Source of the DNA: a virus
Lineage: Duplodnaviria; Heunggongvirae; Uroviricota; Caudoviricetes
IMG/VR virus record: IMGVR_UViG_2671180758_000025
Strand: one strand, 5' to 3'
Length of the DNA: 39,939 bases
Shown: piece by piece, positions 9,385-38,625 of the stretch
Position numbering within the stretch: the stretch's first letter is position 1
How the letters are laid out: every line of letters starts with the position of its first letter
Notes under the pieces: generated by a model
Databases searched by the model: none
The model's input: only the letters and a program-made list of their open reading frames with translations
What the model was told of the DNA's origin: nothing
Program-made: the position numbers and the translations under genes

Positions 9385-11114
9385 CAGACCCCCTCCGCAA
9401 TAAACCCAATATTCCATCCACCGTTATCTCCGGTGATGCTCAGAGTAAAGCCAGTTGCAGTAATAGCTGTAATGGCGACACCCTCAACACTCCCACCGTG
9501 TGACGAACGGAAAACGGGGATCACGTACCAGCACTGACGGGCAAATGGTGTCGGAAAATTCACCTGATACTCTTTATTCACCACACCAGTTGCCCCGGAA
9601 AAATAACTGTTAAAAAACTGCTTCAGCACACCGCCAGTTATTCGGTGATAATTGCTGCCAAATGAAAATTCATCTTCACAAACACCCCGACGCCATAGTG
9701 TTGTATTGTCTTTAACCGTATCAGAGCCGCTGAAACGGTGATACATTTCCCCTGCTCCGGTGATGAAAATCTGCGCGCGTCTGTTCTTGTTATACGCAGC
9801 CTGAAAACCTGCACCATTCGATGGCACTTCATCTGCATTACCTGAATATGCAAGAAACTGTGAAACCTCACCCATTTCGTAGTTATTATTGCTACCGATT
9901 CCGTATGCTCCCTGTTGCAGAGCACTTTCAGCCTTATCAACCGTCGGTTTAAGTCCCAGATTCTGAATAAACAAAGTCGGGTCAGGAATATCAGCACCAT
10001 TGCGGTCCTTTGCCAGTCTCGCGCTGGCGTTGTCCATCGCAATTTTTACCGCTTTCAATGTCGCCGCAACATTTTCTGACACGCTGTTTACATCGTTCCC
10101 CAGTTGCACCATTCCTTTAACACTCACTGATGCTTCTGGATAATGTGCACTGGTGAACACCTGATTCCACGGTGTTTCATCATCGGCAATTTTCGATAAC
10201 ATGCTGAATCGACAGTACATCTTGCCATCATTAGCGACATAAATCTGTGCACGTCGATTGTCGTTGTAACAGGCCTGGAAACCAGCACCATGTGTTGGCA
10301 CTTCTGGATAGCCGACAGCTGTACCATAAGCAAAAAATTGCGATTTGGTTCCCATGGTTTTCAGATAAGCCAGGCCAATTCCATAATCTCCTGGCTGAAT
10401 CGCTGATGCAGCTTTATCAACAGTCGTTTTCAATCCCAGATTCTGAACAAACAGTGCCGGATTGGGAATATCAGAACCATTGCGGTCTTTTGCCAGTCTG
10501 GCGCTGGCATTATCCATCGCTATTTTCACTGCTTTTGGCGTTGCAGCGACTGTTTCATCATTGCTTTCCACACCGCTATACAGACGTACAAATCCCTTTT
10601 CTGTCAAAGACGCAGAAGGATGGAGGCGCGATTGCTCATGAATTTCTATTTGTTGATCTACATAATGACGGGTTGCCAGCACGACAGCAGGGTCGATTTT
10701 CAGGGTGATATTATCCGTACTGCTGGTAATCAGCACCATGCGCACGGTCTGGGTGCGCCCGCTGCCTTCAGCCAGTTGTGGCTTATAGCTTTCCGGGCAG
10801 TTGCCCACGGCAATCAATGCCCCGGACTCATCAAACAGGCCCACTTCACGTATCCACCAACCGCCCTCGTTTTCTGGGATCACCTGTTCGGCAATAATCT
10901 GGCTGCTGTTCTGCGGGTCGATATAGAGCATATTCAGCGCAGCCCGGCGTTTCTCATTTACCAATGCTGTCTGCTTTGCGTCCGGCGTTGGCAATGTTCC
11001 GCCGCCATCGCCGACCGCCATATGGGTAATTTTTAAAGGCACACCGAGCGCGGCGGCGCTGGCAAGTTTCGCCGCGCCAATATCCGTCAGCAGGGTATAA
11101 AATTTTGTGCTCAT
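9384..11114 (-). CDS. H: Tail fibre protein (P2 gpH homolog) with an internal tandem duplication
   Basis: 576-aa ORF; N-terminus MSTKFYTLLTDIGAAKLA... is gpH-like. Two ~120-aa repeat units (ETVAATPKAVKIAMDNASARLAKDRNG...) lie 480 nt apart. Confidence 0.9.
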   Translation of the reverse strand: MSTKFYTLLTDIGAAKLASAAALGVPLKITHMAVGDGGGTLPTPDAKQTALVNEKRRAALNMLYIDPQNSSQIIAEQVIPENEGGWWIREVGLFDESGALIAVGNCPESYKPQLAEGSGRTQTVRMVLITSSTDNITLKIDPAVVLATRHYVDQQIEIHEQSRLHPSASLTEKGFVRLYSGVESNDETVAATPKAVKIAMDNASARLAKDRNGSDIPNPALFVQNLGLKTTVDKAASAIQPGDYGIGLAYLKTMGTKSQFFAYGTAVGYPEVPTHGAGFQACYNDNRRAQIYVANDGKMYCRFSMLSKIADDETPWNQVFTSAHYPEASVSVKGMVQLGNDVNSVSENVAATLKAVKIAMDNASARLAKDRNGADIPDPTLFIQNLGLKPTVDKAESALQQGAYGIGSNNNYEMGEVSQFLAYSGNADEVPSNGAGFQAAYNKNRRAQIFITGAGEMYHRFSGSDTVKDNTTLWRRGVCEDEFSFGSNYHRITGGVLKQFFNSYFSGATGVVNKEYQVNFPTPFARQCWYVIPVFRSSHGGSVEGVAITAITATGFTLSITGDNGGWNIGFIAEGV

Positions 11115-19556: not shown

Positions 19557-21323
19557 ATGAACACCACACTGACACCCGCAGATCTCGATCCCCGTCGGCA
19601 GGCCATGCTGCTGTACTTTCAGGGATACCGCGTAGCCCGCATTGCTGAAATGCTGGGCGAGAAAGTTGCAACCGTTCACAGCTGGAAAAAACGCGACAAG
19701 TGGGGTGACTATGGGCCGCTGGATCAGATGCAGCTCACCACCGCCGCACGCTACTGCCAGCTCATTATGAAGGAGCACAAAGAAGGGAAAGATTTCAAAG
19801 AAATTGACCTGCTGGCACGCCAGTCTGAGCGCCACGCGCGGATCGGCAAGTTTAACAATGGCGGCAACGAAGCCGACTTAAACCCTAACGTTGCCAACCG
19901 CAACAAAGGCCCACGTCGTCAGCCGGAAAAGAATGTTTTCACCGATGAACAGATTGAGAAACTGGAAGAAATCTTCCATTCCTCTATGTTCAACTACCAG
20001 CGCCACTGGTGGGAAGCCGGAAAAACCAACCGCATCCGCAACCTGCTGAAGTCACGCCAGATCGGCGCGACCTTTTACTTTGCCCGTGAAGCCCTGATTG
20101 ACGCCCTGCTGACCGGGCGTAACCAGATTTTCCTTTCTGCCAGCAAGGCTCAGGCCCACGTCTTTAAACAGTACATCATCGACTTTGCCAAAGAAGTGGA
20201 GGTGGAGCTGAAAGGCGATCCGATGGTGCTTCCTAACGGGGCCACGCTTTACTTCCTCGGCACCAATGCCCGCACGGCCCAGAGTTACCACGGCAACCTG
20301 TATCTGGATGAATATTTCTGGATACCGAAATTCCAGGAGCTGCGCAAAGTGGCTTCCGGTATGGCTATTCACAAAAAATGGCGACAAACCTATTTTTCCA
20401 CGCCATCCAGTCTGACACACAGTGCTTATCCGTTCTGGTCCGGTGCGCTGTTCAACCGTGGGCGCAACAAAGCCGATAAGGTGGACATCGACCTGTCCCA
20501 CAGCAATCTGGCCCCCGGCCTGCTGTGCGCAGACGGGCAATACCGCCAGATAGTCACCGTGGAAGATGCGGTGCGCGGCGGCTGTAACCTGTTCGACCTC
20601 GACCAGCTACGCATGGAGTACAGCCCAGACGAATACCAGAACCTGCTGATGTGCGAGTTTGTGGACGATCTCGCGTCCGTGTTTCCGCTCAGCGAGCTGC
20701 AGGCGTGCATGGTGGACAGTTGGGAAGTCTGGACCGACTTTCATGCACTGGCGCTGCGCCCGTTTGGCTGGCGCGAAGTGTGGATCGGTTATGACCCGGC
20801 AAAAGGTACGCAAAACGGCGACAGCGCTGGATGCGTGGTGGTGGCACCGCCAGCCGTGCCGGGTGGTAAGTTCCGCATTCTTGAGCGTCACCAGTGGCGC
20901 GGGATGGACTTCCGCGCCCAGGCTGACGCCATCAAAAAACTTACCGAACAGTACAACGTGACTTATATCGGTATCGACTCAACCGGCGTTGGTCACGGGG
21001 TTTACGAGAACGTGAAAGCGTTTTTTCCTGCCGTCCGGGAGTTTGTCTACAACCCCAACGTTAAAAACGCCCTGGTACTCAAGGCCTACGACATTATCAG
21101 CCACCGCCGTCTGGAGTTTGACGCCGGACACACCGACATAGCGCAGTCCTTTATGGCAATCCGTCGCGCCACCACCGCCAGTGGCAACCGCCCGACCTAT
21201 GAAGCCAGCCGCAGCGAAGAAGCCAGCCACGCCGATCTGGCCTGGGCAACGATGCACGCACTGTTTAACGAACCGCTGCAGGGCGAGTCCGCCAATACCA
21301 GTAATATTGTGGAGATTTTTTGA
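19557..21323 (+). CDS. P: Terminase large (ATPase) subunit (P2 gpP homolog)
   Basis: 588-aa ORF; translation recognised as gpP family. Confidence 0.93.
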   Translation: MNTTLTPADLDPRRQAMLLYFQGYRVARIAEMLGEKVATVHSWKKRDKWGDYGPLDQMQLTTAARYCQLIMKEHKEGKDFKEIDLLARQSERHARIGKFNNGGNEADLNPNVANRNKGPRRQPEKNVFTDEQIEKLEEIFHSSMFNYQRHWWEAGKTNRIRNLLKSRQIGATFYFAREALIDALLTGRNQIFLSASKAQAHVFKQYIIDFAKEVEVELKGDPMVLPNGATLYFLGTNARTAQSYHGNLYLDEYFWIPKFQELRKVASGMAIHKKWRQTYFSTPSSLTHSAYPFWSGALFNRGRNKADKVDIDLSHSNLAPGLLCADGQYRQIVTVEDAVRGGCNLFDLDQLRMEYSPDEYQNLLMCEFVDDLASVFPLSELQACMVDSWEVWTDFHALALRPFGWREVWIGYDPAKGTQNGDSAGCVVVAPPAVPGGKFRILERHQWRGMDFRAQADAIKKLTEQYNVTYIGIDSTGVGHGVYENVKAFFPAVREFVYNPNVKNALVLKAYDIISHRRLEFDAGHTDIAQSFMAIRRATTASGNRPTYEASRSEEASHADLAWATMHALFNEPLQGESANTSNIVEIF

Positions 21324-22357
21324 TGGGAAAGAGTAAGAAGAACCGCGCTGCGGCGACGAATCAGATCCAGCATAAAAACCAAACTTCAGCCGAAGCATTC
21401 AGCTTCGGTGATCCCGTTCCTGTTCTGGACCGCCGGGAACTGCTGGACTATGTGGAATGCGTACAGACAGATCGTTGGTATGAGCCGCCAGTGAGTTTCG
21501 ACGGGCTGGCGCGTACCTTTCGCGCTGCCGTGCATCACAGTTCACCAATTGCGGTGAAATGCAACATTCTGACCAGTACCTACATCCCTCACCCGCTGCT
21601 CAGCCAGCAGGCTTTTTCACGTTTTGTGCAGGACTATCTGGTATTTGGTAACGCCTACCTGGAGAAACGCACGAACCGCTTCGGTGAAGTTATCGCCCTT
21701 GAGCCTGCTCTGGCAAAATACACCCGACGCGGGTTAGACCTGAATACCTACTGGTTTGTGCAATACGGTATGACAACCCAGCCGTATCAGTTCACGAAAG
21801 GCAGCATTTTTCATCTGATGGAACCGGACATCAACCAGGAGATCTACGGCCTGCCCGGCTATCTTTCTGCCATTCCGTCCGCCCTGCTCAATGAGTCCGC
21901 CACGCTGTTCCGCCGTAAGTATTACATCAACGGCAGTCATGCTGGTTTCATCATGTACATGACCGACGCTGCGCAGAACCAGGAGGACGTGAACAACCTC
22001 CGCAACGCGATGAAAAGCGCCAAAGGCCCTGGCAACTTCCGCAATCTGTTTATGTACTCGCCTAACGGCAAAAAGGACGGGCTTCAGATTATCCCGTTGT
22101 CAGAAGTCGCAGCGAAGGATGAGTTTCTGAATATCAAAAACGTGAGCCGTGACGACATGATGGCTGCGCACCGCGTGCCGCCGCAAATGATGGGGATAAT
22201 GCCTAATAATGTCGGGGGGTTTGGGGATGTGGAGAAAGCCAGTCGCGTATTTGTACGTAATGAATTAACGCCCTTGCAAAAAAGGCTACAAGAGCTGAAC
22301 GACTGGCTGGGCGAAGAAGTGATTAAATTTACGCCCTATATTCTTTCAGAAGAATAA
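21323..22357 (+). CDS. Q: Portal protein (P2 gpQ homolog)
   Basis: Start placed at the ATG overlapping the P stop (TGATG); the supplied ORF begins 3 nt earlier at TTG. Confidence 0.9.
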   Translation: MGKSKKNRAAATNQIQHKNQTSAEAFSFGDPVPVLDRRELLDYVECVQTDRWYEPPVSFDGLARTFRAAVHHSSPIAVKCNILTSTYIPHPLLSQQAFSRFVQDYLVFGNAYLEKRTNRFGEVIALEPALAKYTRRGLDLNTYWFVQYGMTTQPYQFTKGSIFHLMEPDINQEIYGLPGYLSAIPSALLNESATLFRRKYYINGSHAGFIMYMTDAAQNQEDVNNLRNAMKSAKGPGNFRNLFMYSPNGKKDGLQIIPLSEVAAKDEFLNIKNVSRDDMMAAHRVPPQMMGIMPNNVGGFGDVEKASRVFVRNELTPLQKRLQELNDWLGEEVIKFTPYILSEE

Positions 22358-22365
22358 TTCCGAAC

Positions 22366-23064
22366 TTATTTGTTTCTTCTTTGTTCACGCCTTGTCTTGG
22401 CTTCGATAAGGCGTTGAGGTTCAGTGTAAAGCCGTTCTAAAAAAAGATAGGTAAAATCTTCAAGATCCTCAGCAGCAGCTTTATCCAAAATACCTTCATG
22501 CGCTCCATCATTTCCGTCATCTTTAACGCATTCAGCTAGTTCCCTTAAAGCTTCAGGCAGTAGATGATTATCAAATAACCACTCCATTCTTAACCCTAGG
22601 CTTCTCCTTATTTTTTGCGCAGGCCCTTGCTCCCCATCAGGAAGAAGTCCTTTTGTGGCATAATCAAGGCAAAGCCTAAACATGGTTGCTGCTGCATTAT
22701 AACAACCTATAGCCAAACATTTCGCCCCTTCCTCATATGCACTATTGATATGCTCAGGTAAGAACTCTGGTGGCTCCTCTACTGCTAAGTCTGCTGGTGA
22801 TATAGGCCTAACAACCTCTGCAACTTCCTTTAAGCCGAATATTCCACTTTCCCAATTATAGCCATCTAAAGTTTTATTTTTCGTTAAAGGTCTGCAAAGA
22901 AACATTGTCGTTTTATGACACTCTCGGCAAACACAATAGACCTCGTACTCGTATGTTTTACCCCCGCCCAATGCATTGTAAACCCTAGTGCAATTCAGCC
23001 CATTAACATCAAACGCTATTTTTTGTGATCCACATCGTGGACAGTCATCCACTAACATAACCAT
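22366..23064 (-). CDS. Hypothetical cargo protein with N-terminal Cys4 zinc ribbon
   Basis: 232-aa ORF; CPRCGS...CVCRECHKT pattern at the N-terminus, then an acidic helical C-terminal region of no family I can name. Visibly AT-rich; converges on Q. Confidence 0.6.
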   Translation of the reverse strand: MVMLVDDCPRCGSQKIAFDVNGLNCTRVYNALGGGKTYEYEVYCVCRECHKTTMFLCRPLTKNKTLDGYNWESGIFGLKEVAEVVRPISPADLAVEEPPEFLPEHINSAYEEGAKCLAIGCYNAAATMFRLCLDYATKGLLPDGEQGPAQKIRRSLGLRMEWLFDNHLLPEALRELAECVKDDGNDGAHEGILDKAAAEDLEDFTYLFLERLYTEPQRLIEAKTRREQRRNK

Positions 23065-23174
23065 GTCAATTACTTCTCCCTATGAAAAAAATGAGTTGAA
23101 AAATTGAATATTCACGACTTAAAAAGCTAGCCTATTTAACACCATAATTTCATTAATTCAACCATGAGCGCGCG

Positions 23175-23193
23175 CTCGTATCCCCGCCACGCC
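23175..23193. other. Putative cos cohesive-end site
   Basis: Minus-strand GGCGTGGCGGGGATACGAG; the first 13 nt match the 186/P2 cohesive-end sequence as I recall it (GGCGTGGCGGGGAAAGCAT / GGCGAGGCGGGGAAAGCAC). Sits in a GC-rich non-coding gap. Confidence 0.35.
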
Positions 23194-23353
23194 TGCCCGC
23201 TTTATGTAGCGGTTTTCATGCGCCTGCATGACATAAGCAAAATCCCGCCACTCCTGGCGGGCCTCAGCTAAAACGATCCTCAAACGATCATGCGGATTCA
23301 TGCGGCATAGACATGCACAATCTCCAAAGCGGGCATCGAGACTTTTTGGAAAC

Positions 23354-23965
23354 CTACGTAACCACAGTTAATGTGTGCATCCTGTCTCGAATTGCATCAC
23401 ACGTCTCATCAAAAAGCTTGGTGATGGTTGTATGGTTCAACTCCGCCTCTTTCCAATAATTTTGCCCGTCAAATTCTGGATCGCTATGCTTAAACGATAT
23501 TGACTCTGAAAGGCATTCCTTCCGGAAACGGTCCAAGATTATATAAACCTCTGGTGAGATGAACGGTTTGTTAGATTCAACACTTGTAACAAAAGTGTTA
23601 AATGCATCAAAAAAAACTTTCAACCTTCTAAATTTTCTCTCTTCAAATGGTTCGTTGGGGTCAACATGATCCAGCGCAGGCCTCAGCTTAAGCACGCTTT
23701 CTCTAGTTTCAAACATCGAATTCCAAATGAGACTATATGCTGATAACTCCTTATCAAAATACGCTTTCGTTACATAAACAGAATTGTCTAACTTAGCCTT
23801 TATTCTTTCATTAGTTGCACTCAGTTGTGATTGAAATTCAGCAATATCTTTGTTTAGCCGCGACTTATATCTTTCTAAATAAACTTTCCCGATCCAAACA
23901 AATATGCCAGATGCAACAAAAGACACCCCACCCAACGAAGCCAGAACTTTAAAGACTAAATCCAT
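23354..23965 (-). CDS. Hypothetical membrane-anchored cargo protein
   Basis: 203-aa ORF with a single N-terminal TM helix (VLASLGGVSFVASGIFVWIG) and a soluble domain of unknown family; AT-rich. Confidence 0.6.
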   Translation of the reverse strand: MDLVFKVLASLGGVSFVASGIFVWIGKVYLERYKSRLNKDIAEFQSQLSATNERIKAKLDNSVYVTKAYFDKELSAYSLIWNSMFETRESVLKLRPALDHVDPNEPFEERKFRRLKVFFDAFNTFVTSVESNKPFISPEVYIILDRFRKECLSESISFKHSDPEFDGQNYWKEAELNHTTITKLFDETCDAIRDRMHTLTVVT

Positions 23966-24013
23966 TGCGCCCCCACCTGCAAAAATAGTATTCCATTATA
24001 AGCTAATACATTT

Positions 24014-24229
24014 TTAATCAAACGGGGGATAATTCGCGTCAACCTCATCACTTCTCTGCTCTACCCTAGTGACTTCCATCAAAAACCCCAGGCCGTCATA
24101 TAGCGAAACGGGGAATTCCAGCTCAAGCCAGAAGCAGTCTTCATAGATGCGGCCCAACCAAAAACCTCCGCCACACTCCTTTGGGCGTTGAAAGAAGACC
24201 CAGTCGCCAAGGGTTAAACGTTCCAGCAC
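24014..24229 (-). CDS. Small hypothetical protein
   Basis: 71-aa ORF between the DinI-like gene and the membrane-anchored gene; coding status uncertain. Confidence 0.4.
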   Translation of the reverse strand: MLERLTLGDWVFFQRPKECGGGFWLGRIYEDCFWLELEFPVSLYDGLGFLMEVTRVEQRSDEVDANYPPFD

Positions 24230-24347
24230 CTAGCCCCGATAAATAATCTGGTGATTACTGTCTTTTTTACCCATGGCTAACGCCTCGCTACTCTCGTTGT
24301 TCAACCTTGCTGACGTCAGATTCAAGTTCTTACATCAGGAACGTTCC

Positions 24348-24581
24348 TTAGTGCAGCCAGCTGTCGTCTTCCCAAACCTGTTGCATAATTTCCATCACCC
24401 GCTTTTTGTCTTCATCAAGCTTTAAGCCACTCAGCTCAACGCCGTTTGCCGACCCTTTACGGATGCGGATAGCGGTCTTGGGATAGATGGGTTGCAGGTT
24501 GCGGTAAAGCTCGGACTCCAGAGCGTCCAGGGTAGACTGGCTAATCTTCTGCTCTTTATCGATCATTATTTCAATGCGCAT
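24348..24581 (-). CDS. DinI-family protein
   Basis: Translation from internal start MRIEIMIDKEQ...EDDSWL aligns with E. coli DinI (MRIEVTIAK...WESADDW) from memory. The supplied ORF extends to 24653. Confidence 0.75.
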   Translation of the reverse strand: MRIEIMIDKEQKISQSTLDALESELYRNLQPIYPKTAIRIRKGSANGVELSGLKLDEDKKRVMEIMQQVWEDDSWLH

Positions 24582-24591
24582 AAAAGTCACC

Positions 24592-24780
24592 TCAGCTGAT
24601 GACATCCATTGAGCGGTTGTATTCGTGGCTTCTGATTTTTGCCATGAGTTCATCAGTCAATTCAGAAACCCACTGCAGGGCCAGCCCCTTCTCTTCATCA
24701 CTACACTCACTAGCCGCTACAAGCTTAAGAAAAAAATCAATGCGCTGGAGCTTCAAAGACTCCAAAAAATAGTCCTGCAT
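24592..24780 (-). CDS. Small SOS-controlled protein (possible antirepressor-like module)
   Basis: 62-aa ORF from the ATG preceded by AGGAGG, with a LexA box 44-59 nt upstream; the supplied ORF extends to 24882. Confidence 0.5.
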   Translation of the reverse strand: MQDYFLESLKLQRIDFFLKLVAASECSDEEKGLALQWVSELTDELMAKIRSHEYNRSMDVIS

Positions 24781-24823
24781 CTTTCCTCCTATGACACCGC
24801 AAACAATACTGTATAGATAACCA

Positions 24824-24839
24824 CTGTTTATATTTACAG
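24824..24839. promoter_or_regulatory. LexA (SOS) box over a putative promoter
   Basis: CTGTTTATATTTACAG (CTGT-N8-ACAG) with A/T-rich flanks, overlapping TTTACA / TATACT-like promoter elements on the minus strand. Confidence 0.6.
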
Positions 24840-24933
24840 TATATAATAATCTTACTGATGTAAAACGTTTTTTTACGTTCATCAGCCTGATATGCCTGGT
24901 ATTATTAAGAGCACGAATTGTTAACCCGCGTAA

Positions 24934-27348
24934 TTAATACAGGTTCCGCCACTTATCATCTTCCTGCAAACGCTGGTTCCGATAGAAGACACGCAGGCCT
25001 GCTCCTGACGGAATACTGCCGCCGCGAAGGAGTAAATCGACCTCTTTCTCGCTGCCATCAAATCCTCTGGACTTCAGTTCATAGACGAGCTGCTGTCGTT
25101 GATGGTCTGTAATTCGCTGTTTGTAGTCTCTACGCCGTTTCGGTTTCACCAGGCGTAACCTTGCAGCCAGTTCCCGGCGCTCTTTTTTGTTCATACTGTG
25201 CAGGTAATCGTGCAACTCCTTGTCATCCATGTGGGTAATGTCCGTTCTGGTATCCCCATCAGCTGATTTGTCTTTCCCTTGTTGGTTCAAATTTTCAGCA
25301 AGGGGACAGTTATTGCCACGAGTCCAAGGGGCGCAAGCGCCCTGGTCGGCTGCCGCCTCCTGAATGTCAACGGCCTTACGAACCATTTTCCACTTCACCG
25401 CATGAGTGCAGATCTTGCCCTCTGCAATGGGTGACCAGATGCCATAAATACGAATACCGTGATCGCCATAGGCGGTCGGCTCTTCGTTGATTTCATAAGC
25501 GGTTCTGATGAGGTGATATTTGCGGGGAACTAGTACGCCGCCCTGCTTCATGATGTAGGTGGCAAAACAACCAGCATCAGCAGCGGCTAGGATGGCATCA
25601 AGGCGCGGGTTATCCAGTACCGGCGCACCTGCTTTTTTGTCCCCCTGTTGCCTTGCCGCCTGACCAGCCAGCAATCGCAGTTCACGGTAAGCCTGACGCC
25701 CCGGAATGCCAAAGAAGCGGAATTGCTGAACACGATGCAGAGACGCCCAGGCATTAACGTATTCAGCGTTATCACGCAGGGATTTACCCGTTTCCTTGCT
25801 GATCTCGCCAGCCAGACCACGCCCGTCAATGTTCTTACTGATGTATTTCGCGATGTAGCTTGTTGGCGTACCTTTGCGCGGGTTTATCAGCTCAGACTTA
25901 AAGCGTGGTTCCGTGTTATTACCCAGCTCCTCGCGGTCTTCACGAATGGCAAACTTACGCAACAAAGCAGTAATGGCGCGGCGATCTTTTTTGCGCATAA
26001 AACACAACAGGTGCCAGTGAACTGTACCGTCATGATGCGGCTCAGCCACCCGCACGCCATACCAGCGTAATCCGGCTTTGTGCATCGCCTTACGAAATGC
26101 AGCAAACATACCGACCAGATAATCACTGCTTTGTCTTACCGTCGCATTTGTCCAGGTCGGGTTGGGCCTGCCGTTATTTAGCGTGGAATGGAAACGTGAC
26201 GGACAGGTGATGGTGTAGAAAACGGCGCAGTCACCGCGCATTTCCGCGATAAGCTCCAGACCTTTAACACAGGCCATCATCTCATTGCGGCGATGTGCAG
26301 GGTTGCTGCTGCTGGCGTTTACCACGTCTTCCATATCCAGCGTGTCGCCGTCTTCGTTCACCAGTTCATGAGAACGGAAAAACTCCAGCGACTTACGGCG
26401 CTGCTCACGTTTATGCATCACGGCTTCATAGCTGACATAGGGAGATGCTTTTTTGCTGACCAGGCAAACAGCACGCAACTGCTCTTCCCGCCATTCGCAA
26501 CGCATCTTCCATAATTTCCGATACCACCAGTCGGCGCATAACATACGCGCCAGCGAACCCGGAATGAGTTCATAAGGCACGGGTTTACGGCGGTTTCTTT
26601 TCCGACGGAGTTGCTCAAACGCAGGCGGGATAACATCCAGACGCAGGGTTTCCGCTGCCACCTTTTCCCATGTTTTGCGGATTTCTTCTGGCTTAATGTC
26701 ATCGGTGACATACAAATCACCACAAGCTGCATCAAGGCACATGCTCATATGCGCGGCGACAAGGGTAGACAGGCGCTTCACCTGATCCTGACTCATTTCA
26801 GGCAGGATCAGCAGGCCGTCCAGCCCTTCATGGCTTGCCATAAAGCGAAAAGAAGTGGATAGCTGACAGTCGCGTACATGCTCCAGTCGTTCCAGACATG
26901 GCTTAATCGTCTCACGCAAATAGCGGGAATAAGCCTTTGGCCTGCCCAGGCTGCTGAAGTATTCAATACGTTGCATCAGCGACTTGCTGATATGGGAAGG
27001 CTGGGCGTTAACGTCCGCCAGAATGACCATGTCTGGATTAAAACGCTGCTGCTCATGCGCCAGCTTTGCCCGGCTAATGAGCTTATCCTGCTCCATTTCG
27101 CGTTGGACAGGATCACGGGATTCATTAAAGAAATAACGCTCCCAGACCTGATCACTCAGTGCCTCGCGGCGCAGCTGTTCCTGCTCGTTATCGGCAGCGT
27201 ACAGAGTGATCAGGTTTGAAAGCGCAGAAACCGGCGCAACTTCCGCCGGGTCCAGATAAGGGTTAATGGCCTTTTTCGGGCTGTTCCATGAGAACGCTGC
27301 GGCAGCCTCGTTAAAGCCGCAGCAGTTGTTCATATCGGCATGGCTCAT
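24934..27348 (-). CDS. A: Replication initiation endonuclease (P2 gpA family)
   Basis: 804-aa ORF; start overlaps the dam stop (ATGA); position and translation consistent with rolling-circle initiator A. Confidence 0.88.
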
Positions 27349-31031: not shown

Positions 31032-32060
31032 ATGACGATCAGAAAACAGCCGAACGGAAAGTGGTTATGTGAATGCTACCCAAACGGGAGAGATGGCAAA
31101 CGCGTACGCAAACAATTTGCGACGAAAGGCGAAGCCATTGCGTTTGAGAATTTCACCATGGATGAGGTAAACAAGAAACCTTGGCTGGGAGAAAAGGAAG
31201 ATCGGCGACCACTGTCAGAAGTGATTGAGCAATGGTATTCCCTGTACGGTCAGACACTCGCTGACCCTAAGCGATTAATGGCTAAGCTAAAAATCATTTG
31301 TAATGGGCTTGGCGATCCCATCGCTTCTGAATTGACAGCAGGTGATTTCACAAAGTACCGGGAAGCCAGATTAAAAGGTGAGATCAAAAACGAAGATGGC
31401 GTGCTCATGTCACCGGTTAAGCCCCGCACGGTAAACCTTGAACAACGCAATCTGTCATCGGTGTTCGGTACATTGAAAAAACTAGGGCACTGGTCCGCAC
31501 CAAACCCACTGGCAGGGCTTCCAACCTTCAAAATTGCTGAAGGTGAATTGGCTTTTCTTTCCACGGACGAAATCAAACGCCTGCTTAATGCCTGCGCCGA
31601 ATCTCAAAACACCAGCCTACTAATGATTGCAAAAATATGCCTGGCTACTGGTGCGCGATGGAGTGAAGCAGAAAACCTACAGGGCCACCAAATATCGAAA
31701 TACCGAATTACTTATACAAAGACCAAAGGCAAGAAAAACAGAACAGTACCCATATCACAGGAGCTGTATGACGAACTCCCAAAGAACAGAGGGAAGTTAT
31801 TCTCACCATGTAGAAAAGCCTTTGAACGAGCAGTAAAACGGGCAGGTATAGATCTACCGGAGGGCCAATGCACCCACGTACTGCGCCATACATTCGCTAG
31901 CCATTTTATGATGAACGGCGGAAACATACTCGTGTTGCGCGACATCCTTGGTCACTCGGATATAAAAATGACTATGGTTTATGCACATTTTGCACCTGAT
32001 CATTTAGAGGATGCAGTATCAAAAAACCCTTTATATAGATTAAAATGGACCACACCATGA
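31032..32060 (+). CDS. int: Tyrosine integrase (P2/186 type)
   Basis: 342-aa ORF with the C-terminal catalytic signature ...HVLRHTFASHFMMNGGNILVLRDILGHSDIKMTMVYAHF. Confidence 0.92.
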   Translation: MTIRKQPNGKWLCECYPNGRDGKRVRKQFATKGEAIAFENFTMDEVNKKPWLGEKEDRRPLSEVIEQWYSLYGQTLADPKRLMAKLKIICNGLGDPIASELTAGDFTKYREARLKGEIKNEDGVLMSPVKPRTVNLEQRNLSSVFGTLKKLGHWSAPNPLAGLPTFKIAEGELAFLSTDEIKRLLNACAESQNTSLLMIAKICLATGARWSEAENLQGHQISKYRITYTKTKGKKNRTVPISQELYDELPKNRGKLFSPCRKAFERAVKRAGIDLPEGQCTHVLRHTFASHFMMNGGNILVLRDILGHSDIKMTMVYAHFAPDHLEDAVSKNPLYRLKWTTP

Positions 32061-33076
32061 CTCAAGAATTCGTAATTAGCTATATAAAAAAACCAGAAAC
32101 ATCTACTTTCCTTATAATTTTTTATTTAATATATCTATTTATTGAATACACAAAAAACAAAAATAATAATTATTTCGAAATGACTGAGGAAAGGCTAACA
32201 AAACAAAATTTATTTAAACAATCCATCAGAATACCTATTATCTCATCCTTATACTTCGGTATATTCTCATGGATGGGACACTCTCCTCAATTTGATGCTG
32301 ATGGATTTTCAAACTTCATTGAAATAAGCAAGTTGCCTATCGCTCTTCTTTCCCTTTCGATACCCTTTGTAGCTATAGTCGCTAACATTCACAGAACAAT
32401 ACAAACGGAAAATCAAATTAGGAAAACACAGCAACAGATAGATCTAGTGACTGAGAAAAACCGCAGTGATGCTTACTACGCTCACCTCAAGAATTATTCG
32501 GATATGTTTAAAACGTTACCGTCATTTACCCTTTCTCGTCGAGATAATACAACTTTCGAAAAAGACACAATTAAACTATCTGTAGATCATACCTACTCAT
32601 TATATAAAAAAATATTCACAAAATCCTCAATCTCTACTGGATATAATAATGAAGTTGATAAATCATTCCTTGAAAAATTAGAAAATATATATAACAGCAT
32701 TGGGCATGAAATAGCAAGATACAATCAGCTTTACCCAAAACAAGTTAACATATCTAATTTAGAGAACATTGAAGCACAAGTGGTATGGCTGTGTAGAGAA
32801 CTAGGAGTTAATTATGAAAGAGAAGTCAACAAATTTGAGATTTTTGATCCGATATCAAACTTAGGAATAGAAACATCATTTTCAGATGAAAAAGAAATAA
32901 AAGAAATGCTTCGTGGATTACGAGATATATTGATATCTCTGTACATGCTAATTGATCAAAATACAATTATTTTCCAAGCAACTGCCAATAACGGTGATTT
33001 TTTAGCCAATTATGCTTACGATCCAGATTTTTTGATTTTTAAGGGGATCTTACCTATAGATTCTCAAGGTAAATAA
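32057..33076 (+). CDS. Hypothetical AT-rich membrane protein between int and the att core
   Basis: Three predicted TM segments in the first ~115 residues, then a ~220-aa soluble region of unknown family. Start chosen at the ATG overlapping the int stop (ATGA); an upstream ATG at 32045 is also possible. Confidence 0.6.
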   Translation: MTQEFVISYIKKPETSTFLIIFYLIYLFIEYTKNKNNNYFEMTEERLTKQNLFKQSIRIPIISSLYFGIFSWMGHSPQFDADGFSNFIEISKLPIALLSLSIPFVAIVANIHRTIQTENQIRKTQQQIDLVTEKNRSDAYYAHLKNYSDMFKTLPSFTLSRRDNTTFEKDTIKLSVDHTYSLYKKIFTKSSISTGYNNEVDKSFLEKLENIYNSIGHEIARYNQLYPKQVNISNLENIEAQVVWLCRELGVNYEREVNKFEIFDPISNLGIETSFSDEKEIKEMLRGLRDILISLYMLIDQNTIIFQATANNGDFLANYAYDPDFLIFKGILPIDSQGK

Positions 33077-33235: not shown

Positions 33236-33400
33236 CTTTTTAGTTGTTTGAAGTTCAATGAAGTCTACTAAGCCCACACAGCACAAGCTCTGCGGGCTTT
33301 TTTACGTCTATTGTCGTCCAGTGAGAATTGCTGAGAACTACGAGTTATGGCACCCTGAATGGGACCCATTAAGAAGGGTCCAAAAACCGAGGGTCCCAAA

Positions 33401-34630
33401 ATGGCAAAAATCGCTAAGAAGCTCACTGACACTGAAATCAAAAGCACCAAGCCAGCCGATAAAGAAATCAACTTGTTTGACGGTGATGGTCTGATTCTAC
33501 GAATCGCTCCTTTGGCGAAAGGAGGCAAGAAAAATTGGTATTTCAGGTATGCAGTACCAGTGAGCAAGAAAAGAACCAAAATGAGCCTTGGGACATATCC
33601 TCACCTTACCCTTGCAAGAGCCAGAGCCTTACGTGATGAATATCTCTCCTTTCTGGCAAATGGTGTTGATCCCCAAATCCATAACAACGATAAGGCGAAG
33701 GCATTAAAGAGTGCTACTGAGCACACTCTCCAAGCCGTAGCGCGGAAATGGTTAGATGAGAAGGTAAAGACATCAGGTATCTCACAAGACCATGCAGCAG
33801 ACATCTGGCGCAGCTTAGAGAGAAATGTCTTTCCCGGTCTGGGTAATGTCCCTATCAATGAGATCCGACCTAAGCTCTTAAAACAACACCTTGATCCTAT
33901 TGAGCAACGAGGCGTATTGGAAACTCTACGCCGTATCATTTCACGTCTGAATGAAATCTTCCGGTGGGCAGCTACTGAAGAACTTATTGAGTTCAACCCG
34001 GCTGACAACCTTGGTCAAAGATTCAGTAAACCAAAAAAGCAAAATATGCCTGCCCTTCCCCCAAGCGAATTGCCAAGGTTTATGGAATCTTTGACGAATG
34101 CGTCAATCCGGTTGGAAACACGTATGCTAATTGAATGGCAATTGTTGACATGGGTTCGTCCGGGTGAAGCCGTTCGCGCAAGGTGGTCTGATATTGATAC
34201 AACCAACAGCATTTGGAACATTCCTGCTGATTTCATGAAAATGAAAAAGCTTCACAAAGTTCCTTTGAGTAAAGAAGCTTTGCGCATCCTTGAATTAATG
34301 AAATCAATAAGTGGGCATAGAGAATGGGTTTTCCCCAGCATAAAAGCGCCTCTTAATCATATGCATGAACAAACAGCCAACGCAGCTATCATCCGAATGG
34401 GGTTCGGAGGCGAGCTTGTAGCTCACGGTATGCGTTCTATTGCACGAACAGCGGCAGAGGAGTCTGGTAAATTCAGAGCTGAAGTTCTTGAGGCAGCGCT
34501 TGCCCACTCGAAAAAAGATGAAATTATCGCAGCATACAATCGTGCAGAATATCTGATAGAGCGACAGAGTTTGATGCAATGGTGGAGTGATTACGTTCAA
34601 GCTCAAAGATCAAATGCTCTGGTAGCCTAA
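33401..34630 (+). CDS. intA: P4-type tyrosine integrase (IntA-like, CP4-57 family)
   Basis: Start at MAKIAKKLTDTEIKSTKP... with GAGGG upstream; typical P4-family N-terminus; 165 bp from the att core. The supplied ORF begins at 33359. Confidence 0.88.
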   Translation: MAKIAKKLTDTEIKSTKPADKEINLFDGDGLILRIAPLAKGGKKNWYFRYAVPVSKKRTKMSLGTYPHLTLARARALRDEYLSFLANGVDPQIHNNDKAKALKSATEHTLQAVARKWLDEKVKTSGISQDHAADIWRSLERNVFPGLGNVPINEIRPKLLKQHLDPIEQRGVLETLRRIISRLNEIFRWAATEELIEFNPADNLGQRFSKPKKQNMPALPPSELPRFMESLTNASIRLETRMLIEWQLLTWVRPGEAVRARWSDIDTTNSIWNIPADFMKMKKLHKVPLSKEALRILELMKSISGHREWVFPSIKAPLNHMHEQTANAAIIRMGFGGELVAHGMRSIARTAAEESGKFRAEVLEAALAHSKKDEIIAAYNRAEYLIERQSLMQWWSDYVQAQRSNALVA

Positions 34631-34668
34631 GTATCAGAATAGCTAATATAATCCTGAAGGTAAAGAAA

Positions 34669-35085
34669 ATGGAAACCCTATTCAAAGTTTTTGAAAAATT
34701 TAGTTCCAGACCACTTTTTTTTATTTTTTTCGGACTCTCACTTTGTGAATTTTTTCAGAAACAATCTGTTCTGATGAATCCATCAGCAGATAACATCGCG
34801 AAATTATTCGCAGCCATGATATTAGTTGTTTTTTTTACTTGGGGATTTGAATGGCTAATCTTCAAGTTCAATGTAAACCTTGAACCTCATGATCAAGGCG
34901 ATATTGGACCAACAATTGGAACGGCTACTTTAGCTGTATACTTAGTTTATGCCTTTCACTTTCTCAGTGAAAATCCTGAAGCATTAAATTTAAAGTTATT
35001 AACTAACTCTGGCTTTATATACAGCACAACTCTATTATTATTCTCATTAGAATGCATGAAGCTTAGAAGACTTAAACAAAAATAA
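34669..35085 (+). CDS. Small hypothetical membrane protein
   Basis: 138-aa ORF with 3-4 hydrophobic segments; AT-rich; convergent with the kinase/receiver pair. Confidence 0.45.
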   Translation: METLFKVFEKFSSRPLFFIFFGLSLCEFFQKQSVLMNPSADNIAKLFAAMILVVFFTWGFEWLIFKFNVNLEPHDQGDIGPTIGTATLAVYLVYAFHFLSENPEALNLKLLTNSGFIYSTTLLLFSLECMKLRRLKQK

Positions 35086-35156
35086 ACAACATCATTGTGA
35101 TGATAAATATAAAATAGGCATGGCGAAAAAAAATCACCACGCCTAAAATATAATAA

Positions 35157-36905
35157 TTATGGTAGCATCATTGATACATAATCCACACCAATCCTTGAGC
35201 TATACTGAGACGCTATAGCCTGATATCTTTCTGCATAACCAGTTCTCAGTTGAGATTTAAGTTTGAGTCGGACAGGAACATTTTGCACGTTGCCATCCAT
35301 ATTACTTAAAAACACGGCAGAAATAATATTTTTTTCTTCGCCATCAACTGTTGTTCCATGATTCAACACCACCATATAATCAACAACAGGAAGCGTTTTA
35401 TCCCCTTCGAAAATAGAGAGATATTTTCTTTGATTTTTATGCATTACATATATATATTTCGAATGTTCAGCAAATGGCAATGCTTTACTCTGACTGGCGT
35501 TAAAAAGCTCCAGAACTTTAATGAGCCTGTGCGGACTTAATCTTACATGGTGAGGGTCGTTACCCTGAGTAGGAACCAAATCACATGCCGCAGATACACA
35601 TAAATACCATTTGTTCGACTCTGTATCAAAGAAAATAGTGCCAGTAGAAATATGACCATCTTCAAAATTCTTTGAAGACAAATTCATATTTAAAGCATGA
35701 TACATTTCGTGATAAGTATCATTATTTGATGGCAGATCCATTTTTGAAGAGCAATATTGGAGCAATGCAGCAACTCCGCTGTTAGCGTATTCATTTGAAT
35801 AGCTATCAAAAACACTTTTGATAAATTCATCCAGCGTATTATTATTTTTAAGTCTTTGATAAAGCTCTTCTGATAAATTACCAAATACAAAGTCAATATT
35901 TCTACATCTAATATCAGGCGAGTCTGATTTTAATATCTCATTTAACCACGCAGCTTGACCGTAATGATCGTTAGCCAAATGATTTACAAAAGATAAAGCC
36001 TCAGCTTCGATTGCATTCTGAATTTCAGATTTTATTAACTGATAATAAGATGGTTTCCATTCAATGAGAGAATCATTGAGAGTTTGCCAAATCCTATCTC
36101 CATCGTTTTCATGATCATCTTGAACCTTATGAAATAGGGAGACAAAGATATTACCACATTGAATCCATTTTACTCCGCTTTCATCACCCCGAATGACATT
36201 GCCAGATGTGTTGCTAGAAATAATTGCATTTCTAGACACAGCATATTCTGCAATCATTTTTGCAATGAAGTTTTTATCCTTTTGATCCTCCAACACAGCA
36301 TCATCATGTATTAATCTTTTAATTCTTCTACAAGGCTTACTGTCTTTAATATAGGCTATTGTTTCATCTCTTGTGAGAGCTTTATTACCATTATCATTTA
36401 AGTTCGGTAATACAACGTCTTCCCAATAACTTTGGACATCTTCATTATCGTAGTCAATGATCAAGCTGTTGATATCCAGAGCACCTTTGAGAGTCGATGA
36501 TATCTGCATCCAAACCGTTTCTAAATTCTCTCTAGTATATATTACAATCATATTTAAATGATCGGAGTCTTTCAAATCTTGTAATAGTTTAAGTGTTTTA
36601 TCAGGTGCATTATTATCAAGATGATAATCTACAATAATAAGATCTGATTTTCTAATCCGATCCACATCGAAATTAACAGAACCATTGTCAACATCACAAA
36701 TCATATTTTTAGATTGAAAAAAGCTCTCAAGAGTAGCGGCTCGTTTAGATGAGTCAATTTTGTTGTAGTCTAAATCAACTTCGTTATTCAACGCCCTGAT
36801 TGATTCAGAATACGTCAGAAAATCGTCATCAATCATGACAACGGAACGAATTGCATTTTCGCAGAAAGTTTTCTGGACAAGAGAATTATAATTTGCCACT
36901 GTCAT
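35157..36905 (-). CDS. Receiver (REC)-domain protein with large unrecognised C-terminal domain
   Basis: N-terminus has CheY-like landmarks (VVMIDDD, LIIVDYHL, MIVIYT); about 450 aa follow with no motif I can name. Start chosen 1 nt after the kinase stop, with GGAG upstream; an ATG at 36923 is also possible. Confidence 0.7.
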   Translation of the reverse strand: MTVANYNSLVQKTFCENAIRSVVMIDDDFLTYSESIRALNNEVDLDYNKIDSSKRAATLESFFQSKNMICDVDNGSVNFDVDRIRKSDLIIVDYHLDNNAPDKTLKLLQDLKDSDHLNMIVIYTRENLETVWMQISSTLKGALDINSLIIDYDNEDVQSYWEDVVLPNLNDNGNKALTRDETIAYIKDSKPCRRIKRLIHDDAVLEDQKDKNFIAKMIAEYAVSRNAIISSNTSGNVIRGDESGVKWIQCGNIFVSLFHKVQDDHENDGDRIWQTLNDSLIEWKPSYYQLIKSEIQNAIEAEALSFVNHLANDHYGQAAWLNEILKSDSPDIRCRNIDFVFGNLSEELYQRLKNNNTLDEFIKSVFDSYSNEYANSGVAALLQYCSSKMDLPSNNDTYHEMYHALNMNLSSKNFEDGHISTGTIFFDTESNKWYLCVSAACDLVPTQGNDPHHVRLSPHRLIKVLELFNASQSKALPFAEHSKYIYVMHKNQRKYLSIFEGDKTLPVVDYMVVLNHGTTVDGEEKNIISAVFLSNMDGNVQNVPVRLKLKSQLRTGYAERYQAIASQYSSRIGVDYVSMMLP

Positions 36906-36906
36906 A

Positions 36907-38625
36907 TTAGAACTCCACTCCATTGAACTGGATCACAAAATTAGCGCCATCTTTTATTAAATAGTTATCGCCTTCATCAGGTTCTGAATACCATATTTTA
37001 TGATGTGCAACAGCAAGGTTTTCTCGACATAGATACAGACCTACCCCATGTCCATTTGCTCTTTTGCTATAAAATAGTTCAAATAGTCGCGGGATATCAT
37101 CGGTATCAATTGCCGGACCAGAATTTGCTATGATAACCAAAGAATTCACAAAACCAATATTTATGAGCCTATTATTTGACAGACTGACCCAATACATTGC
37201 ATTGTTGATAATATTAGTAAAAACAGGATAGATCCTTGATGGTATATCTGTTATTGCGATTTGCTTAAACTCTTCACTAAATTCAATAGTTATTCGTTGC
37301 CGTTCGAAACGCTCCCCAAAGAACTTCAGGACATAATCCATGATATTTTTTCCAGTTATTCTCTGCCTGGATTGATAACCTGATATTTTCAAAGGTGATA
37401 AGAAACGTATTTGTTGAGTAAGCGATCTGTGAGCATTTAACGCCAATGAAAAACCAGGGTGTTCTTTTACAGAAGTAGGAAGAGAGTTTAGTCCTCTGGT
37501 TACCATAGAATCCATTTCTTCAAGTTCATGAGATATTATCTCAACACTAATACCTAACTGTGCAAGCGCGTTTAAACTTTTAGCTTTTTCTTCAAAATAT
37601 GAGCGTTCTTCTTCAGATAATGAGAATGCTGAATCTAAGTTTATACCTTCAAATAATCTATCGAGACCTTTTATTATTGATTGATATTTGAAAGTTAGGG
37701 TATCAACTGACTCAACATATAAACTATCGAGCAAATTAAACACATTTTCAATTTGTGAATCATTATCTATTGAATCAACAACTGATATAGTTTTAGCATA
37801 ATAATCACTTCGATCAACCTTTATTTCATCGGCCCATTTTTTTAAAAGAGAATGTATCTTCTCCTCTATCGTGTTATTAAACTTAGTTAGTTTAGAATTA
37901 ATAATACCTTGATTTTTTTCAAGGTGATTTTTCGCTGACAATGAAGGCTCAAGTTTATTTAATTCAGAATCAAGTTTATTAATTGCTAACTTCATTTGTA
38001 GAATATACGCAGAGAATTCATTAAATTTATCTCTGTAGTCTCTATATTTCTCTTCATACATTCCAAGTTTTGGAGGTTTGATAGGCGTTTTAATTTCACT
38101 GCGCAACGCATCTAAGTTTGTAAGATCACTGTCTATAATTTTAAGATAGTTTAAATCTAACGAACCATCAGTTTTATCAAGCTTAGTTTTCAGCCTTTTA
38201 ACAGCCTCCAAGGAAGCATCAAGAACTGGTGTCTGATTCTTCAAAGCTTCTGAAAAACTTTTTTGTGTTGATTTTCGAGCTTGTTGTTGAGCAGATTTTC
38301 TTAACTCTTTTTCACGCTTAACTTGTTCTAAAAGCTCTTTACGGTCATCAGAACGTGAACCAAAAAATCTATCAGCAAGTTCAGTTAACAAATTAGATAT
38401 AATAGTTTTCAGTTCTCTTGCAGCCTGGTTTCTTATGAATCCCTCTCTCCCCGACTTATCTTTCAGCTCTTTATTACTGGATTGAGTAATTCCAATATAA
38501 CCAAAAATCCTTCTATTAGACCAATAATATCGCCCTGCATTCCATGAACGTCTTTCTTCTATCTGGAAGAAATCATTATCTACTCGACCATAAGGTAATA
38601 CTCTCAAGCTATCCCTAAAAATCAT
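36907..38625 (-). CDS. Cytoplasmic histidine-kinase-like protein (HisKA + HATPase_c core); 5' end may be disrupted
   Basis: C-terminal third carries H-box-like ISHELEEM, N-box NIINNAMYW, G1-like ANSGPAID, F-box FELFYS and G2 GHGVGLYLC. No TM helices; Lys/Glu-rich coiled-coil N-terminal region. The frame stays open upstream to the IS3 end. Confidence 0.7.
   Translation of the reverse strand: MIFRDSLRVLPYGRVDNDFFQIEERRSWNAGRYYWSNRRIFGYIGITQSSNKELKDKSGREGFIRNQAARELKTIISNLLTELADRFFGSRSDDRKELLEQVKREKELRKSAQQQARKSTQKSFSEALKNQTPVLDASLEAVKRLKTKLDKTDGSLDLNYLKIIDSDLTNLDALRSEIKTPIKPPKLGMYEEKYRDYRDKFNEFSAYILQMKLAINKLDSELNKLEPSLSAKNHLEKNQGIINSKLTKFNNTIEEKIHSLLKKWADEIKVDRSDYYAKTISVVDSIDNDSQIENVFNLLDSLYVESVDTLTFKYQSIIKGLDRLFEGINLDSAFSLSEEERSYFEEKAKSLNALAQLGISVEIISHELEEMDSMVTRGLNSLPTSVKEHPGFSLALNAHRSLTQQIRFLSPLKISGYQSRQRITGKNIMDYVLKFFGERFERQRITIEFSEEFKQIAITDIPSRIYPVFTNIINNAMYWVSLSNNRLINIGFVNSLVIIANSGPAIDTDDIPRLFELFYSKRANGHGVGLYLCRENLAVAHHKIWYSEPDEGDNYLIKDGANFVIQFNGVEF

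Follow-up and report, generated by a model that had tools for sequence, protein, structure and literature searches.

A single-gene moron next to cos in a P2/186-like prophage of Escherichia coli encodes a membrane-tethered four-helix-bundle protein

P2-like prophages contribute a sizeable share of the antiviral repertoire of Escherichia coli, and many genes of their cargo hotspot are unexplained. Such a gene, coding for a protein of 203 amino acids (aa), is located next to the cos site of the prophage studied here and raises three questions: what kind of protein does it encode, what drives its expression, and does it act against phages? The window, i.e. the whole stretch of 39,939 nucleotides of the IMG/VR record IMGVR_UViG_2671180758_000025, is an E. 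coli chromosomal segment carrying a P2/186-like prophage adjoining smpB, and all positions refer to it. The analysis firmly identifies the 203-aa gene as an autonomously expressed, horizontally acquired single-gene moron, whose product is a membrane-tethered four-helix-bundle protein from a large family associated with mobile elements.

The AT-rich open reading frame (ORF) reported by the initial annotation is present at positions 23354-23965 of the minus strand, with a GC content of 38.4% (38% at third codon positions), below the 52.8% of gpA and the 55.1% of the structural core. Close homologues sharing 66-99% identity were found in E. coli, Enterobacter and Citrobacter. In an exhaustive HMMER search, 773 representatives of clusters defined at 50% identity were detected at E<=1e-3, and 279 at the stricter limit of 1e-10; nearly all of them have a length of about 200 aa and are matched along the full length. 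Codon comparisons indicate that the gene is under purifying selection: dN/dS is about 0.11 relative to the Enterobacter orthologues, for dS values of 0.8-0.9, and between two Enterobacter copies there are 12 synonymous substitutions and no non-synonymous one. Because of these full-length homologues, of this dN/dS ratio and of the transcription of an orthologue (see below), the gene is not a chance ORF. In an alignment of 94 diverse members, E73 and R195 are invariant, the residues R95, P96, P134, F135, E154, W81, I192 and R193 are conserved in at least 95% of sequences, and R114 and N177 in 84%.

The protein belongs to no known family, as had been proposed, and none of its homologues has a virion or replication role. 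Library searches gave only sub-threshold matches that correspond to coiled-coil noise (Val_tRNA-synt_C, Apolipoprotein). With the defence hidden Markov models of PADLOC-DB 2.0, no match was obtained for the window protein, and the 94 members gave only scattered matches to unrelated models, at E values of 1e-4 or weaker. In PHROGs, the protein is assigned to phrog_26391, of unknown function. We found no paper naming the protein WP_000366631, and the available text of a preprint on CRISPR interference in E. coli LF82 contains nothing on the 203-aa orthologue. The gene has already been catalogued twice as unknown and is not new as an object, and its family has no characterised member. In many complete genomes RefSeq labels the gene "valyl-tRNA synthetase" (for example NZ_CP025862.1, 3302764-3303639). 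The likely source of this label is the sub-threshold coiled-coil match to Val_tRNA-synt_C (E 0.009, 16.7 bits vs a cut-off of 25.9); the label is an annotation error that has been repeatedly copied.

The protein displays one hydrophobic helix, formed by residues 7 to 25 (mean Kyte-Doolittle value of 2.01), and no second hydrophobic segment was detected in the window protein or in any of the 94 members, which agrees with the single N-terminal transmembrane (TM) helix initially annotated. The AlphaFold2 model obtained with the 94-sequence alignment has a mean predicted local distance difference test (pLDDT) of 93.7 and a predicted template modelling score of 0.73, the five models all having a pLDDT above 92. 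In this model a continuous helix (residues 2-61) comprises the TM segment 7-25 and a stalk (26-61), followed by a four-helix bundle (67-198) with helices 67-92, 107-131, 138-160 and 168-198; a strand at 63-65 pairs with a strand at 199-201, and this short beta-bridge closes the bundle. The near-invariant polar residues of the bundle are E73, R95, R114, E154, N177, R193 and R195, and the conserved Glu and Arg residues would form a putative binding site. A strongly hydrophobic N-terminal TM helix is present in 89 of the 94 members. It is preceded by an acidic tail of 8 residues on average, and Lys and Arg are richer on its C-terminal flank in 91 of 94 sequences. According to the positive-inside rule, the flank of a TM helix rich in Lys and Arg faces the cytoplasm, and on this basis the bundle is predicted to be cytoplasmic. 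The TM helix bears a semi-conserved GG pair. In the stalk, the hydrophobic residues L37, I41, F44, L48 and I55, as read from the sequence, follow a heptad spacing that is compatible with self-association.

The fold is that of the four-helix-bundle sensor domains of Adeh_2942 (4k0d), TorS (3i9w), Tar (1lih) and PcaY (6s18), which share only 3-10% sequence identity with the 203-aa protein. These domains are periplasmic, lie between two TM helices and are followed by an output module, whereas in the 203-aa protein there is a single TM helix, the bundle is predicted to be cytoplasmic, and the chain ends after it. A fold search of BFVD gave no match at E<=1e-3, the best named match being an uncharacterised protein of phage HP1 (E 0.055). 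A relation to HEPN-like RNases was considered and rejected: the string R193-x-R195-x-H197 does not conform to Rx4-6H, and members of the family do not generally keep the His.

The features of the locus are listed below in the order in which they are met on the minus strand, from gpA to the end of Q.

24934-27348, minus strand: gpA (from the ORF list)
24824-24839, minus strand: LexA box CTGTTTATATTTACAG, found by pattern search, overlapping the promoter of the 186-type SOS operon
24592-24780, minus strand: 62-aa ORF of the SOS operon
24348-24581, minus strand: DinI/Tum-like gene of the SOS operon (DinI Pfam match, 3.8e-24)
23319-24275, minus strand: cargo insert of 957 bp, delimited by blastn against vB_EcoM-813R9, whose slot is empty
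24014-24274, minus strand: remnant of an 86-aa gene (phrog_2100), from alignment with Cartapus and E. coli H1 and from a phrog_2100 match
23995-24021, minus strand: candidate promoter of the 203-aa gene, read from the sequence
23354-23965, minus strand: 203-aa gene (from the ORF list)
23244-23261, minus strand: terminator-like hairpin, then AUUUUGCUU, 3' of the 203-aa gene and just before cos (terminator scan)
23167-23225, no strand: cos packaging site (misc_feature 1-59 of Cartapus, "putative cos site", mapped to the window)
22366-23064, minus strand: 232-aa zinc-ribbon/DUF4145 gene, a separate cargo between cos and Q
21320-22357, plus strand: portal gene Q

The region 22326-23525 shares 97-99.7% identity with Escherichia phage Cartapus, a P2-like prophage of E. 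coli LF82, and the position of cos was taken from this 99.7%-identical phage. The 203-aa gene lies between gpA and Q and adjoins cos; its placement between cos and gene A by the initial annotation was right. The P2 hotspot was defined by Rousset et al. 2022 (PMC9122126), who found that about one third of the cloned systems from P2 and P4 hotspots are antiviral. In their Table S5B the 203-aa protein is system #39, with 103 occurrences, the mention "1 TM" and no function (PMC9122126); the supplementary file giving the systems they cloned does not contain its sequence. Like the cargo of the P2 hotspot (old, tin and the systems of Rousset et al.), the gene is found between gpA and gpQ by cos, is present or absent according to the phage, and has a low GC content. 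Its product is, however, unrelated in sequence to Old, to Tin and to every validated system of the hotspot. The cos site divides the A-to-Q hotspot into two slots: the 203-aa gene occupies the A-side slot and is separated by cos from the Q-side slot, which turns over faster.

Comparison with related phages confirmed that the locus is variable, as had been supposed from its position. By blastn, the segments 23168-23318 and 24276-25000 of the window are contiguous in vB_EcoM-813R9 but for 6 bp; the A-side slot, empty in this phage, contains unrelated genes in Fels-2 and in a Klebsiella phage. The gene is thus subject to presence, absence and replacement as is typical of hotspot cargo, and its absence from syntenic relatives suggests that it is dispensable for the phage life cycle. 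The full insert was found in 41 of 5426 complete E. coli genomes. Eleven further E. coli genomes, of the Shiga toxin-producing (STEC) type, contain, within the remnant of a degraded prophage, a copy disrupted by stops and frameshifts.

We compared 23 carrier loci, comprising 20 of the 21 IMG/VR contigs and three Enterobacter contigs. The 203-aa gene is in the same slot in all of them (23/23). The slot between cos and Q of the carriers contains at least 12 different cargos, among which are retrons, DUF4145, AbiU, AIPR, ShosA/DprA with a phosphoribosyltransferase, PDC-S49, PDC-S59, PDC-S33, PDC-M03A and an OLD/AriA-like ATPase; the cargo of E. coli H1 is a St85-type retron. Since its slot is constant while the cargo between cos and Q changes, the 203-aa gene is an independent module, longer-lived than its neighbours in these lineages. 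The "P2 hotspot" is therefore better described as two slots separated by cos, the gene of the A side persisting and the cargo of the Q side being repeatedly swapped in these lineages.

Downstream of the gene, the hairpin at 23261-23244 (-18.4 kcal/mol, z -3.15) is included in a backbone block conserved in all relatives, and the gene probably uses this backbone terminator before cos. A 47-aa ORF (phrog_28685; 23158-23301, minus strand) overlaps cos and the terminator hairpin. It is present in every relative because its DNA is the cos-proximal backbone, and at some loci mechanical ORF calling joins it, in the same frame, to the cargo downstream. It is unlikely to be a gene.

Evidence on expression comes from Misson et al. 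2023 (PMC9928086), a re-analysis of LF82 RNA-seq data that covers the Cartapus prophage. By its coordinates, LF82_789 (CARTA_47) is the orthologue of the 203-aa gene, with 97% protein identity, so that all values given here concern LF82 and not the strain of the window. LF82_789 is one of only two Cartapus "morons" and is expressed 7-fold over the prophage background in stationary lysogeny broth (LB) (PMC9928086). The S1 table of this study gives log2(fpkm+5), where fpkm stands for fragments per kilobase per million, with a scale floor of 2.32. BLB is stationary LB and MB6 is THP1 macrophages at 6 h (PMC9928086); since the paper describes the table as comprising LB, Dulbecco's modified Eagle medium (DMEM) and macrophage conditions, we read B1 and B6 as DMEM. 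The values are as follows.

203-aa orthologue: BLB 5.5, B1 7.2, B6 8.6, MB1 9.0, MB6 10.5
Small upstream ORF: BLB 3.2, B1 3.4, B6 2.7, MB1 5.0, MB6 7.6
DinI: BLB 3.0, B1 4.4, B6 3.7, MB1 7.9, MB6 9.2
62-aa ORF: BLB 4.4, B1 5.5, B6 4.4, MB1 9.9, MB6 10.9
gpA: about 2.5 in all five conditions

A moron is marked by transcription in the lysogen that depends neither on the lytic genes nor on adjacent genes, and this is what is observed for LF82_789, the ORF upstream of it, DinI and gpA all being at background. The 203-aa gene is on while the upstream genes are at background; this strongly supports a promoter of its own, and the promoter of the orthologue responds to growth conditions. SOS read-through may add to its expression in macrophages. 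A candidate promoter is formed by a -35 box TTGATT (24021-24016), a 15-nt spacer and a -10 box TATAAT (24000-23995), and is followed by an AGGTGG-like ribosome-binding site upstream of the ATG of the 203-aa gene; from it, transcription is predicted to start about 7 nt downstream of 23995. Across seven loci, with proteins down to 75% identity, the -35 block is invariant and the -10 box reads TATAAT, TATAAC or TATACT. A standard scan with spacers of 16-18 nt did not return this candidate. The initial annotation had placed the gene downstream of a LexA-controlled promoter. The box CTGTTTATATTTACAG is indeed the only zero-mismatch LexA box found by pattern search in the window, on the same strand and about 860 bp upstream of the gene, but the orthologue is on when the SOS operon is silent. 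Neither a LexA box at its own promoter nor an SOS-only expression was found for the 203-aa gene, and since the orthologue is expressed while the LexA unit is off and the box belongs to the promoter of another unit, the gene is not simply driven by LexA. A weak hairpin at 24603-24586 was rejected as an isolating terminator: it contains three G-C pairs and is situated at the coding junction between the 62-aa ORF and the DinI-like gene.

As a separate observation, the 62-aa ORF and DinI increase by about 6 log2 units in LF82 in macrophages, with gpA and all structural genes at the floor. The SOS antirepressor operon (24348-24839) fires there without detectable lytic transcription.

The distant relatives of the 203-aa protein were examined in their genomic context. 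In Pseudomonas phage Riah the relative adjoins the CI repressor, in a Clostridium phage it is inserted between terminase genes, and in a small integrative element it directly follows the integrase. The relative from Nitrospira adjoins an insertion sequence element and an HsdM fragment, another one is beside HigBA and a resolvase, and others are found among integrases and resolvases. One belongs to a prophage accessory cluster with SieB-domain, PDC-S48 and PDC-S31 proteins, two genes from the SieB-domain protein. The family also occurs in Verrucomicrobiota and in a marine Pseudoalteromonas. No conserved partner gene was found among the distant-relative loci examined, the members being solitary and carried by mobile elements. 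A tblastn search of a phage collection recovered Cartapus and two distant phages only; two scans of genome contigs found no relative, nor did two scans of viral contigs with distant members.

What could such a protein do? Several known systems offer points of comparison. SNIPE (PD-lambda-1; Saxton et al. 2026, PMC13190303) is an N-out single-pass membrane nuclease that defends at the cytoplasmic face during genome entry. Both are encoded by a single gene, and SNIPE has the organisation predicted for the 203-aa protein: the N-terminus is short and periplasmic, and a single TM helix is followed by an elongated helix and a domain in the cytoplasm. In contrast to SNIPE, neither DUF4041 nor GIY-YIG was detected in the 203-aa protein with Pfam and PADLOC, and only the four-helix bundle is present; without a nuclease domain, it would therefore not cleave DNA by a known nuclease fold. 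Csx28, the membrane pore accessory to type VI-B CRISPR (PDB 8gi1), differs more: it ranks 57th among generic bundles, and outside the top 60 with the better model, and the 203-aa gene is solitary, without a Cas13 partner and without a conserved HEPN-like Rx4-6H motif. RexB and Imm are small membrane exclusion proteins. Together with P22 SieB (PF14163), lambda RexB and T4 Imm share with the 203-aa protein the character of small membrane proteins encoded by phages or prophages. A relation to SieB was rejected, with no Pfam match to PF14163 and an hhalign probability of 0.2% against a SieB-domain protein. A holin or antiholin role was also discarded, since a separate cassette of the phage provides for lysis and the 203-aa gene is on in lysogens.

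From the record of the hotspot (about one third of systems active), the mobile-element context, the expression in lysogens and the precedents of SNIPE and Csx28, we propose by analogy, and with somewhat less than even confidence, that the 203-aa protein may be a phage-exclusion or abortive-infection factor. It would act alone. At the inner membrane face, the tethered bundle would bind a cue coming from the phage, which could be protein or nucleic acid and would appear at genome entry or later; binding of the cue would either block entry directly or drive an oligomerisation of the TM helix and stalk that compromises the membrane. The architecture of the protein matches no model in PADLOC-DB 2.0 (2023). 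The wider view, in which the family would represent new and widespread minimal single-gene immune proteins whose residues E73, R95, E154, R193 and R195 sense a phage ligand or nucleotide signal and trigger exclusion or membrane abortive infection, is rather doubtful.

Several points weigh against a role in exclusion or abortive infection. No phenotype is known for any member of the family. Searches of Pfam, NCBIfam, PADLOC and PDB sequences gave no match, either for the window protein or for the 94 family members, and no recognisable enzymatic or pore domain is present in the 203-aa protein. The fold match is generic, as de novo designed four-helix bundles score nearly as high as the natural sensor domains. 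The spacer of the candidate promoter (15 nt) is short and suboptimal. The P2 hotspot is also home to cargo that does not serve defence, partition systems and a toxin being examples (PMC9122126). The copy in the degraded STEC-type prophage remnant has decayed, so that the gene is not always retained by the host. Finally, the strong induction in DMEM and macrophages fits a role in host adaptation equally well.

This last role would make the protein a lysogenic-conversion factor that aids the host independently of phages, for instance through envelope or stress adaptation in host-like media and macrophages. The LF82 orthologue is about 8-fold up in DMEM and about 32-fold in macrophages compared with LB, without lytic induction, and the membrane location of the protein and the non-defence cargo of the hotspot are also in agreement with it. 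However, the family extends to lineages without animal association (Nitrospira, Verrucomicrobiota, the marine Pseudoalteromonas, the Clostridium and Pseudomonas phages) and its members are always in accessory regions of mobile elements. Moreover, the expression of AT-rich foreign genes often shifts non-specifically with growth conditions, and the induction may be a response of this kind. We consider this explanation unlikely.

The gene could also be of use to the phage when the prophage is induced, as the distal member of the SOS operon, with a function in counter-defence, exclusion of competitors or the membrane. The region upstream of it resembles the coliphage 186 SOS operon (tum and downstream ORFs) by its LexA box, small ORF and DinI/Tum-like gene, and PMC5322425 cites precedents for this operon (Brumby 1996, Shearwin 1998). 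No strong terminator separates the gene from the perfect LexA box upstream on its strand; the 62-aa ORF, DinI, the small ORF and the 203-aa gene rise jointly in macrophages; and the decay of the 203-aa gene in a dead prophage remnant would also fit. Against this, the orthologue is on in LB and DMEM while the SOS operon is off. The 203-aa gene is an insert downstream of the operon, most probably transcribed from a promoter of its own, and does not occur in most of the related phages in which the operon is retained, the tblastn search of the phage collection having given only Cartapus and the two distant phages, and in the Enterobacter prophages, which use the same slot, no DinI gene was detected upstream. 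Such a role appears quite improbable. A further explanation concerns the small ORF that precedes the gene and could form with it a two-gene cassette, for example a toxin-antitoxin-like or a sensor-effector pair. Both ORFs are included in the same 957-bp insert, which starts exactly at the ATG of the small ORF, and this ORF is intact in the LF82-type allele. The 71-aa ORF reported initially is present, with a GTG start at 24229 (24014-24229, minus strand), but it is the tail of an 86-aa gene starting with an ATG at 24274, and a remnant of this gene rather than a partner. In the window, codon 15 of the 86-aa gene is a TAG (24232-24230), whereas it is a CAG in Cartapus and LF82, where the full 86 aa are encoded. 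The window allele of this segment, with its premature stop, is found in 21 of 41 E. coli copies. In the Enterobacter prophages the small ORF has lost its ATG and is interrupted by a frameshift and by a stop codon; in E. cloacae nothing but the 3' end can still be recognised, the 203-aa gene being intact in both cases. The 3' end of the small ORF is conserved, and the likely promoter of the 203-aa gene overlaps with it. In addition, phrog_2100 is found where the 203-aa gene is missing, namely in the ea region of P22-like phages, in SSU5-like phage-plasmids and in Klebsiella and Cronobacter phages, no neighbour is common to the distant relatives of the 203-aa protein, and in LF82 (LB and DMEM) the small ORF is at background while the 203-aa gene is on. 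The two ORFs are thus neither consistently found nor maintained together. A toxin-antitoxin pair was rejected, the small ORF being truncated or decayed where the 203-aa gene is kept: this idea is essentially excluded, and the cassette in general is largely refuted, with hardly any probability left to it.

For the proposed role in exclusion or abortive infection, the 203-aa gene offers a clean test case: about 0.7 kb with its promoter, an orthologue expressed in lysogens, a constrained sequence and an unannotated family that crosses phyla. A phage-resistance phenotype would reveal a new single-gene family of membrane defence proteins, and hundreds of "hypothetical" genes of mobile elements could then be annotated. 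With no resistance, the 32-fold induction in macrophages would point to a role of the prophage in the intracellular lifestyle of adherent-invasive E. coli.

Beyond cos, the neighbouring DUF4145 protein (Pfam DUF4145, 4.5e-7) gives a weak match to PD-T7-4 of PADLOC (1.2e-6). It is identical to system #29 of Rousset et al., described as a "putative nuclease" (PMC9122126), and we regard it as a separate single-gene cargo and a candidate defence gene. The log2 value of its LF82 orthologue goes from 4.7 in LB to 9.6 in macrophages. In two of the STEC-type loci (L019, 5001-5724; L020, 5001-5723), a 90%-identical copy of the 203-aa gene that has lost its N-terminus lies beside DprA, and in L020 a phosphoribosyltransferase is annotated next to DprA. 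Rousset et al. validated the pair of DprA and phosphoribosyltransferase as one of the defence systems of the P2 hotspot (PMC9122126). In this remnant, the cargos of the two slots flanking cos have persisted longer than the phage itself, but only that on the DprA side is intact.

Other features were observed elsewhere in the window. At the prophage end nearest smpB, a 160-aa ORF (1184-1666, plus strand) has no Pfam match; with PADLOC, it weakly matches the C-terminus of PDC-S48 (1.8e-7). By size and position alone it resembles the other Cartapus moron, LF82_783 ("putative exonuclease"), which is expressed at 15x background in LB (PMC9928086). The integrase of the prophage is encoded at 31032-32060. 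A 343-aa ORF (32045-33076, plus strand) overlaps the 3' end of the integrase gene and has no Pfam or PADLOC match; the position between integrase and att is reported to be a minor cargo site of P2 (PMC13586616). Beyond it are found a second integrase, of P4 type (33359-34630), and an AT-rich gene pair (29-37% GC) encoding a Response_reg_2 protein (35157-36923) and a HEF_HK/HATPase_c protein (36907-38625), without PADLOC match. The region 33359-38625 looks like a second island with a two-gene cassette, and it is followed by an IS3-family transposase (38777-39643). Finally, the GC content falls to 43-47% at positions 9000-10500, in the tail-fibre region, which may be a variable tail-fibre/invertase region or another cargo site.

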